A DNA stretch of 24,172 bases from Leptospiraceae bacterium. GTDB taxonomy: Bacteria; Spirochaetota; Leptospiria; Leptospirales; Leptospiraceae. This document shows, piece after piece, positions 15,625 through 16,008 of the stretch. Where the stretch lies: positions 23,023 to 47,194 of the forward strand of contig DAORDH010000042.1 of NCBI GenBank assembly GCA_035345875.1. The letters run 5' to 3'. Position numbers and translations under genes: made by a program. Each line of letters opens with the position of its first letter. The first letter of the stretch is position 1. The notes beneath the pieces were generated by a model. That model did no database searches. It saw only the letters and a program-made list of their open reading frames with translations, and was not told where the DNA came from.

Positions 15625-16008
15625 TTAATTGCACCAACTTTTATCACCACTTGCAATTGCTTTACACTGTGCAGAGCTACACCAAGATTTATCTTTAGAA
15701 GCAACTCCTTTGCAATCAGAATCATTGCACCAACTTTTATCACTACTTGCCCATGCTTTGCAAAGAGGAGAACTACACCATGACTTATCTTTAGATGCAA
15801 CTCCTTTACAATCATTTGTCTGACACCAACTCTTGTCTCCACTAGCAATGCCTTTGCAATCGTTAGTTGTGCACCAACTTTTGTCTTTGCTTGCTATGCC
15901 TTTACAATCTCCCGAAGACAGGGAAGAGATGAAATTACTTCCCCAATCAGCAGCGGCGAGGTTAATAGAGATTAACCCCATAAACAAAATTAACTTAATT
16001 TTATTCAT
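15625..16008 (-). CDS. small secreted Cys/Lys-rich protein made of six tandem 16-aa repeats (consensus xDCKGIASKDKSWCxx)
   Basis: 127 aa. Signal peptide MNKIKLILFMGLISINLAAA, then six near-identical 16-aa units each with two Cys (C-x10-C-x4 periodicity). The units stay in frame across the imperfect DNA repeats, which argues it is a real coding sequence. 38 bp downstream of the MVP-like gene on the same strand. Confidence 0.68.
   Translation of the reverse strand: MNKIKLILFMGLISINLAAADWGSNFISSLSSGDCKGIASKDKSWCTTNDCKGIASGDKSWCQTNDCKGVASKDKSWCSSPLCKAWASSDKSWCNDSDCKGVASKDKSWCSSAQCKAIASGDKSWCN
15631..15918. repeat. six imperfect tandem 48-nt repeats (coding, within the Cys-repeat gene)
   Basis: Units resemble gcaccaacttttatcaccacttgcaattgctttacactgtgcagagcta. 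They generate the shadow ORFs 15629..15823 and 15833..16030 on the plus strand. Confidence 0.85.

Follow-up and report, generated by a model that had tools for sequence, protein, structure and literature searches.

A putative family of exported, cysteine-rich repeat proteins represented next to a vault-like gene in a Leptospiraceae bacterium

[quoted passage not shown] We addressed this question in a 24,172-nucleotide stretch of DNA from a Leptospiraceae bacterium (assembly GCA_035345875.1, contig DAORDH010000042.1, positions 23,023 to 47,194), referred to here as the window. The gene belongs to a minus-strand run composed of an MCP fragment, CheW, CheA, CheB, a histidine kinase, a receiver, the MVP-like gene, the Cys-repeat gene itself and a MASE1-HisKA-HATPase-REC hybrid kinase. 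An initial annotation had placed it at 15625-16008 without giving a strand; the ORF is on the minus strand. Sequence comparison and structure prediction indicate that its product belongs to an uncurated family of exported repeat proteins, apparently undescribed so far, and that the adjacency to the MVP-like gene is a local accident and not a partnership. The features of the locus are the following.

16047..18545, minus strand: MVP-like gene, 832 aa, considered as a neighbour only (MVP_shoulder 2.7e-24, Vault_3, Band_7; PDB major vault protein 3.6e-10)
16009..16046, minus strand: intergenic gap of 38 nt, from the stop codon of the MVP-like gene to the ATG of the Cys-repeat gene
16016..16021, minus strand: Shine-Dalgarno-like AAGGAG, 7 nt upstream of the ATG, by direct reading of the sequence
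15625..16008, minus strand: coding sequence of the Cys-repeat protein, 127 aa (listed ORF; homologues to E 6e-46; dN/dS 0.057 against locus L006)
15949..16008, minus strand: residues 1-20, MNKIKLILFMGLISINLAAA, predicted Sec-type signal peptide (sequence rules; no lipobox Cys)
15910..15948, minus strand: residues 21-33, DWGSNFISSLSSG, N-terminal cap motif W-x3-[FYW]-I-x2-L-S (alignment; pLDDT 93)
15862..15909, minus strand: unit 1, DCKGIASKDKSWCTTN, residues 34-49
15814..15861, minus strand: unit 2, DCKGIASGDKSWCQTN, residues 50-65
15766..15813, minus strand: unit 3, DCKGVASKDKSWCSSP, residues 66-81
15718..15765, minus strand: unit 4, LCKAWASSDKSWCNDS, residues 82-97, with an L-C-K-A-W signature kept across the core family
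15670..15717, minus strand: unit 5, DCKGVASKDKSWCSSA, residues 98-113
15628..15669, minus strand: unit 6, QCKAIASGDKSWCN, residues 114-127, with a conserved Q-C-K-A-I signature

The Cys-repeat ORF, which starts with an ATG at 16008..16006 and stops at 15627..15625, is a genuine gene on which purifying selection is strong. Compared with its nearest orthologue, at locus L006, pN is 0.14 and pS is 0.73 (dN/dS 0.057), and synonymous sites are saturated against every other orthologue. The 93-residue array (15628-15906) is identical at 77 of 93 positions (about 83%) to that encoded at L007 6001-6375, in a Kofleriaceae MAG of 72% GC, the window being 35% GC, while third codon positions of the two sequences agree at only 21 of 93 sites (23%). 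The combination of a high protein identity with nearly randomized third positions argues for an old divergence and a very strong constraint, and such a constraint is unusual for a small exported protein. Three overlapping ORFs of 64-92 aa (15570-15848 on the minus strand, 15629-15823 and 15833-16030 on the plus strand) are shadows of the repetitive coding frame and were not retained as genes.

The translation confirms the six tandem 16-aa units and the 12 Cys at exact C-x10-C-x4 spacing that had been described before, but the mature part contains 15 Lys instead of about 12, together with 12 Asp, 23 Ser and 8 Trp, and is devoid of Glu, Arg, His, Met and Tyr; Cys makes up 11% of it. The imperfect in-frame 48-nt DNA repeats noted initially were also seen by Tandem Repeats Finder (59-78% matches), which in addition found a stronger in-frame period of 96 (78-84% matches, score 276), so that units 3+4 and 5+6 form a 32-residue super-repeat. 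In all orthologues that are complete on their contig, in genomes ranging from 30% to 72% GC, the array consists of six units, neither more nor fewer, and the signatures tied to unit position are the same, namely L-C-K-[AG]-W in unit 4 and Q-C-K-A-I in unit 6. VNTR-like variation in copy number is thereby ruled out, and no length polymorphism, for which a comparison among strains had been proposed, is found among these complete orthologues. The view that this is a selected protein repeat and not a CRISPR array or a VNTR thus holds. One exception was observed in a metagenome copy, at L037 5355-5741, where the second Cys of unit 3 is replaced by Tyr (KDKSWYKSS), leaving an odd number of Cys; natural variation or an error in sequencing could explain it.

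The protein has numerous relatives. A word-indexed search returned 27 of them, with E values down to 6e-46, all unnamed or hypothetical, and a profile search (1.84 billion representatives of clusters at 50% identity) returned 188 clusters at E<=1e-3, 115 of them at E<=1e-10; at least two of the hits, P0059 and P0140, are low-complexity repeats of a eukaryote-like type that contain no Cys, and were discarded as false positives. When one genome of each species was scanned, 28 loci were recovered. Their labels are mostly Leptospiraceae and other Spirochaetota, or Myxococcota (Kofleriaceae, Polyangia, Myxococcaceae), and a few MAGs are labelled Deltaproteobacteria, Proteobacteria, Rickettsiales or Enterobacteriaceae. 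A second type of paralogue was observed in Leptospiraceae, a lipoprotein in which Y-Y-C replaces S-W-C (L001 8001-8528, L002, L022 and L023), with a conserved neighbourhood of HAD hydrolase, TP0873_N/DUF8042 and FliD genes; the MAG JANYCR01 carries both types (L006 and L022).

The anatomy of the family was established on 150 members with at least two units, and the unit consensus, [DN]-C-[KR]-[AG]-[IVL]-[AVIL]-x2-[DN]-x2-[YWLF]-C-x-[ST]-x, was derived from 616 units. Members have 2 to 7 units, most often 5-6. The spacing within units is C-x10-C in 694 cases, and the linker between units is C-x4-C in 522 cases, linkers of 5, 6 and up to 14 residues also being found. Arrays always begin at the first Cys of a unit (C1) and finish at a second one (C2), 148 of the 150 members have an even number of Cys in their array, and the rare insertions within units retain both Cys or add Cys pairwise. 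The cap motif precedes the array, and the alignment shows a conservation of 90% or more for its W, L and S. Among the 131 members with at least three units the array nearly always ends one residue short of the C-terminus of the protein. The window protein combines the export-signal N-terminus, the cap, the tandem units and a terminus one residue beyond its last Cys, a position shared by most of the family. Many members carry a low-complexity linker between an anchor and the array. In others the array is the C-terminal module of larger lipoproteins that also contain Somatomedin_B (P0052, P0125 and P0037) or WG_beta_rep (P0058) domains, while in P0028 and P0030 it is N-terminal and followed by a region without a Pfam match. 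The net charge of the array varies from -16 to +15 in the family, the window protein being at +4; this span suggests no common class of ligand, and a conserved basic surface for polyanion binding is ruled out by it.

The initial annotation recognized no named family in the repeat, and our searches lead to the same view: nothing was above cut-offs for the window protein in Pfam, NCBIfam or PADLOC, nor for 21 family relatives in Pfam and NCBIfam, and the sole hit of a profile search of PDB sequences, a SopE-like protein at E 0.26, was taken as chance. The only Pfam model matched repeatedly was DUF3551 (PF12071), in 4 of 21 members, always below threshold and over about 29 residues; the window protein scores 17 bits (E 0.0066) against a curated gathering threshold of 26.5 bits, which rules out membership. 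A search of the literature by topic and by motif strings found nothing relevant.

Several observations support the export of the window protein. Its N-terminus has an n-region with K3 and K5, a hydrophobic core, and AAA before D21, so that cleavage would occur at A20|D21, and n, h and c regions are present in all orthologues. An N-terminal hydrophobic signal or a lipobox is found in 116 of the 131 members with at least three units, 32 of the 116 having a lipobox; these signals were called by simple sequence rules and not by a signal-peptide predictor. The signal peptide proposed initially is therefore borne out by the sequence rules and by the family as a whole.

An AlphaFold2 model built with the family alignment has a mean pLDDT of 89.8, reaching 96-98 in the repeat blocks, and a pTM of 0.78. 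In each unit one alpha-helix of 7-9 residues (x-D-C-K-G-I-A-S) is followed by a 3-10 turn (x-S-W) before the second Cys, and the same pattern is predicted for the four-unit member P0022 (pLDDT about 87), suggesting that the units are modular. DSSP assignment of the window protein model gave helices only, at a pLDDT of about 97, and no beta-strand; a Foldseek search found no PDB fold that matches the model. Of the earlier proposals for the regular Cys ladder, a disulfide-stapled repeat is thus plausible while the beta-helix is not borne out by the model, and the metal-binding array is the weaker reading. We favour staples between C1 and C2 of the same unit, making six disulfides, over thiolate metal sites, on the grounds of the even Cys counts, of arrays that start at C1 and end at C2, of the near-invariant x10 loop, and of the extracytoplasmic location and fusion to a disulfide-knot domain. 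The disulfide connectivity and the overall shape, an open or a compact array, are both inferred. The fixed number of six units and their signatures in the core subfamily could indicate that the architecture is closed and specific and not that of a generic modular rod.

We next turn to the functions that the genomic context could suggest. The possibility that the Cys-repeat protein serves the MVP-like protein as a functional partner, cargo or accessory, cotranscribed and acting with it, comes from the 38-nt same-strand gap (16009-16046), the size of which agrees with the initial annotation and in which neither promoter-like nor terminator-like sites were found on scanning. The gap between the Cys-repeat gene and the MASE1 kinase also contains no promoter-like or terminator-like site (fold z-score 0.18, shuffles folding equally well), and cotranscription of the Cys-repeat gene with its neighbours is possible since neither gap has a detected promoter or terminator. 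The adjacency is kept at L006, L034, L037 and L038, and a functional link specific to this lineage would fit the lack of a terminator on either side. However, these four loci are close relatives in which the MVP is 90-91% identical, and the metagenome contigs L035 and L036, where it is still 88% identical, keep the same flanking synteny (CheB-HK-REC-MVP-MASE1 kinase-dehydrogenase) with the Cys-repeat gene absent: the distance from the MVP stop to the kinase start is about 50 nt in L035 (5215-5330) and in L036, to be compared with 15573-16046 in the window. The gene is thus subject to a presence/absence polymorphism at this site, for which a single-gene indel, gain or loss, between the MVP-like gene and the kinase in one Leptospiraceae lineage would account. 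At L039 (MVP 68% identical) an unrelated convergent gene lies downstream of the MVP gene, and no MVP-like gene was seen within the flanks examined at the other 30 family loci, several of which are on short contigs. Furthermore, the two products are predicted to be on opposite sides of the inner membrane. Neither all-against-all clustering of ORFs at 35 loci nor a Pfam census of 50 immediate neighbours revealed a conserved operon partner; the latter, made at 27 loci, matched 55 Pfam families with at most 3 neighbours per family, and MVP_shoulder once. The co-occurrence of the repeat motif with MVP-like genes, proposed initially as a check, does not extend beyond the four related loci, so that the suggested pairing is not upheld, and we regard a joint action of the two proteins as extremely unlikely. 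Bacterial MVP homologues have been described in Myxococcales, Cytophagales and Oscillatoriales (bioRxiv 10.1101/872010, 2019 preprint), and a term search of the text of that preprint returned no mention of Leptospira or spirochaetes. The hybrid kinase, about 50 nt downstream, on the same strand and again with no terminator in between, could for its part be served by a periplasmic accessory or ligand-presenting protein. To our knowledge MASE1 sensors have no large periplasmic domain, which would make such an accessory conceivable. Against this, L035 and L036 carry the kinase without the Cys-repeat gene, HATPase_c occurs in only 1 of the 50 immediate neighbours at other loci, and many family members are domains inside larger proteins, which makes this role very unlikely. 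Two observations concern the kinase itself: listed at 13144-15600 on the minus strand, it probably starts at the ATG at 15572 (MKKLNYFF) and not at the listed TTG at 15600, and it is diverging fast, with an identity of only 38-52% in relatives, against 74-92% for the genes around it.

The composition of the protein raises two further possibilities. A periplasmic metal-binding or storage array would hold Cu(I) or Zn through its Cys thiolates, in the manner of metallothioneins or copper storage proteins, and the 11% Cys of the mature protein, their strictly regular spacing and the adjacency, at 4 of 34 loci, of a large protein with the putative metal-binding motif MopE are in line with this idea. 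Yet the Cys count is even in nearly all members and additional Cys appear two at a time, motifs of the C-x-C, CC or CxxC type are lacking and the mature protein has neither His nor Met, the site is extracytoplasmic, some members are fused to the disulfide-knot domain Somatomedin_B, and Csp is matched neither in sequence nor in fold (Foldseek CSP1, E 7.1, TM 0.19). MopE motifs are common in Myxococcota proteins, and such proteins account for only 3 of the 50 immediate neighbours, in differing orientations; their adjacency is probably coincidental, and they were set aside as evidence of a partner. At a few Myxococcota-like loci, MopE-rich proteins of 1000-1185 aa were observed (L003 4931-7933, L019 6788-10345 and L032 6744-10301). 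We consider a metal array unlikely, and the available data point to a disulfide-stapled extracytoplasmic module instead. A secreted antimicrobial or toxin-like peptide, resembling defensins or bacteriocins, would fit a small, exported, Cys-rich and mildly cationic protein (the domain has a net charge of +4), and one family member matches the termicin model below threshold (E 0.009). But charge is not conserved in the family, many members are tethered to lipid or membrane or are parts of large fusion proteins, genes for immunity, transport or maturation do not recur nearby, and 83% conservation across phyla is atypical of effectors engaged in an arms race; the odds are strongly against such an activity. 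On present evidence, all four of these explanations are weaker than a binding or scaffold module.

We propose that the Cys-repeat gene encodes an undescribed extracytoplasmic domain as a free-standing protein exported by Sec. Cleavage of the signal peptide would leave the short cap motif and the six 16-residue units, each predicted to fold as a short alpha-helix and a 3-10 turn. In the oxidising periplasm the two Cys of a unit would probably form a disulfide that pins the turn onto the helix, and the units would stack in a rigid helical repeat array. The most likely use of this array would be as a stable binding or scaffold module of the envelope or cell surface, as suggested by its occurrence in the wider family, where it is hung on lipoprotein or membrane anchors via low-complexity linkers, or on other extracellular domains. 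In summary, we consider it rather probable that the protein represents a new family of helical repeat modules, that it is exported via Sec and stapled by disulfides, and that it acts as a rigid periplasmic or surface element for binding or scaffolding. A more ambitious reading, possible in our opinion but doubtful, is that the array is a new Cys-stapled fold based on a 16-residue unit with a single helix, of which no analogue has been solved, and whose identity of about 83% across phyla reflects the recognition of a precise, periodic and universal envelope ligand, the module then defining a new class of surface binding; candidate ligands would be glycan strands, or else some other polymer or protein that is conserved at the surface.

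Comparison with known systems helps to place the binding or scaffold module that we favour. The DUF3551 proteins resemble the family in being small, bacterial and Cys-containing, and the matches are sub-threshold only. The antifreeze protein of Tenebrio molitor is also secreted and has a regular Cys ladder on very short tandem repeats, which span 12-16 aa in the two proteins and are 12-aa TCT repeats in the antifreeze protein, but the window protein is predicted to be helical without strands, has no Thr ladder, and matches it neither in sequence nor in fold; the lack of a beta-strand solenoid in the model speaks against a beta-helical Cys-ladder of this class. Csp1 and metallothioneins share the high Cys content, and Csp1 is exported, but in Csp1 the Cys line the core of a four-helix bundle, whereas the Cys of the window protein are at unit boundaries, in even numbers and with another spacing: the census of Cys gaps is dominated by gaps of 10 and 4, and not by C-x-C, CC or CxxC. 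No metallothionein or Csp family was above cut-off in Pfam or NCBIfam, and none appeared in the PDB sequence search.

The closest known kind is that of exported, Cys-stapled alpha-repeat proteins of the Sel1/Hcp type. Hcp proteins are exported tandem alpha-helical repeat proteins, with helix-turn-helix units of about 36 aa that each contain a Cys pair and match the Pfam Sel1 model. HcpA, HcpB and HcpC of Helicobacter thus resemble the window protein in being exported, in having tandem helical repeats, and in having one Cys pair per repeat that is thought to staple it. As judged from its sequence, the window protein shares with them a signal-like N-terminus and two Cys per unit; it differs in the lack of an HMM match, of a two-helix unit of 36-44 aa and of fold similarity, its own units being 16 aa with a single helix and a 3-10 turn, against about 36 aa and two helices in Hcp. 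Sel1 and TPR models gave no hit, at E<=1 for the window protein and at E<=0.1 for 21 family members. We regard the Cys-repeat family as a new domain family within this general kind, probably with a new repeat fold. Its recognition would remove a tempting false lead, that of a dedicated secreted partner of bacterial vault-like proteins, and would add a well-delimited, uncurated domain family whose repeat architecture is confidently predicted and matches no solved structure. This family is common to two distant environmental phyla under an unusually strong sequence constraint, and its compact domain of about 95 residues, probably hyperstable and easy to produce and to solve, is a potential scaffold and may reveal a new principle of envelope binding.
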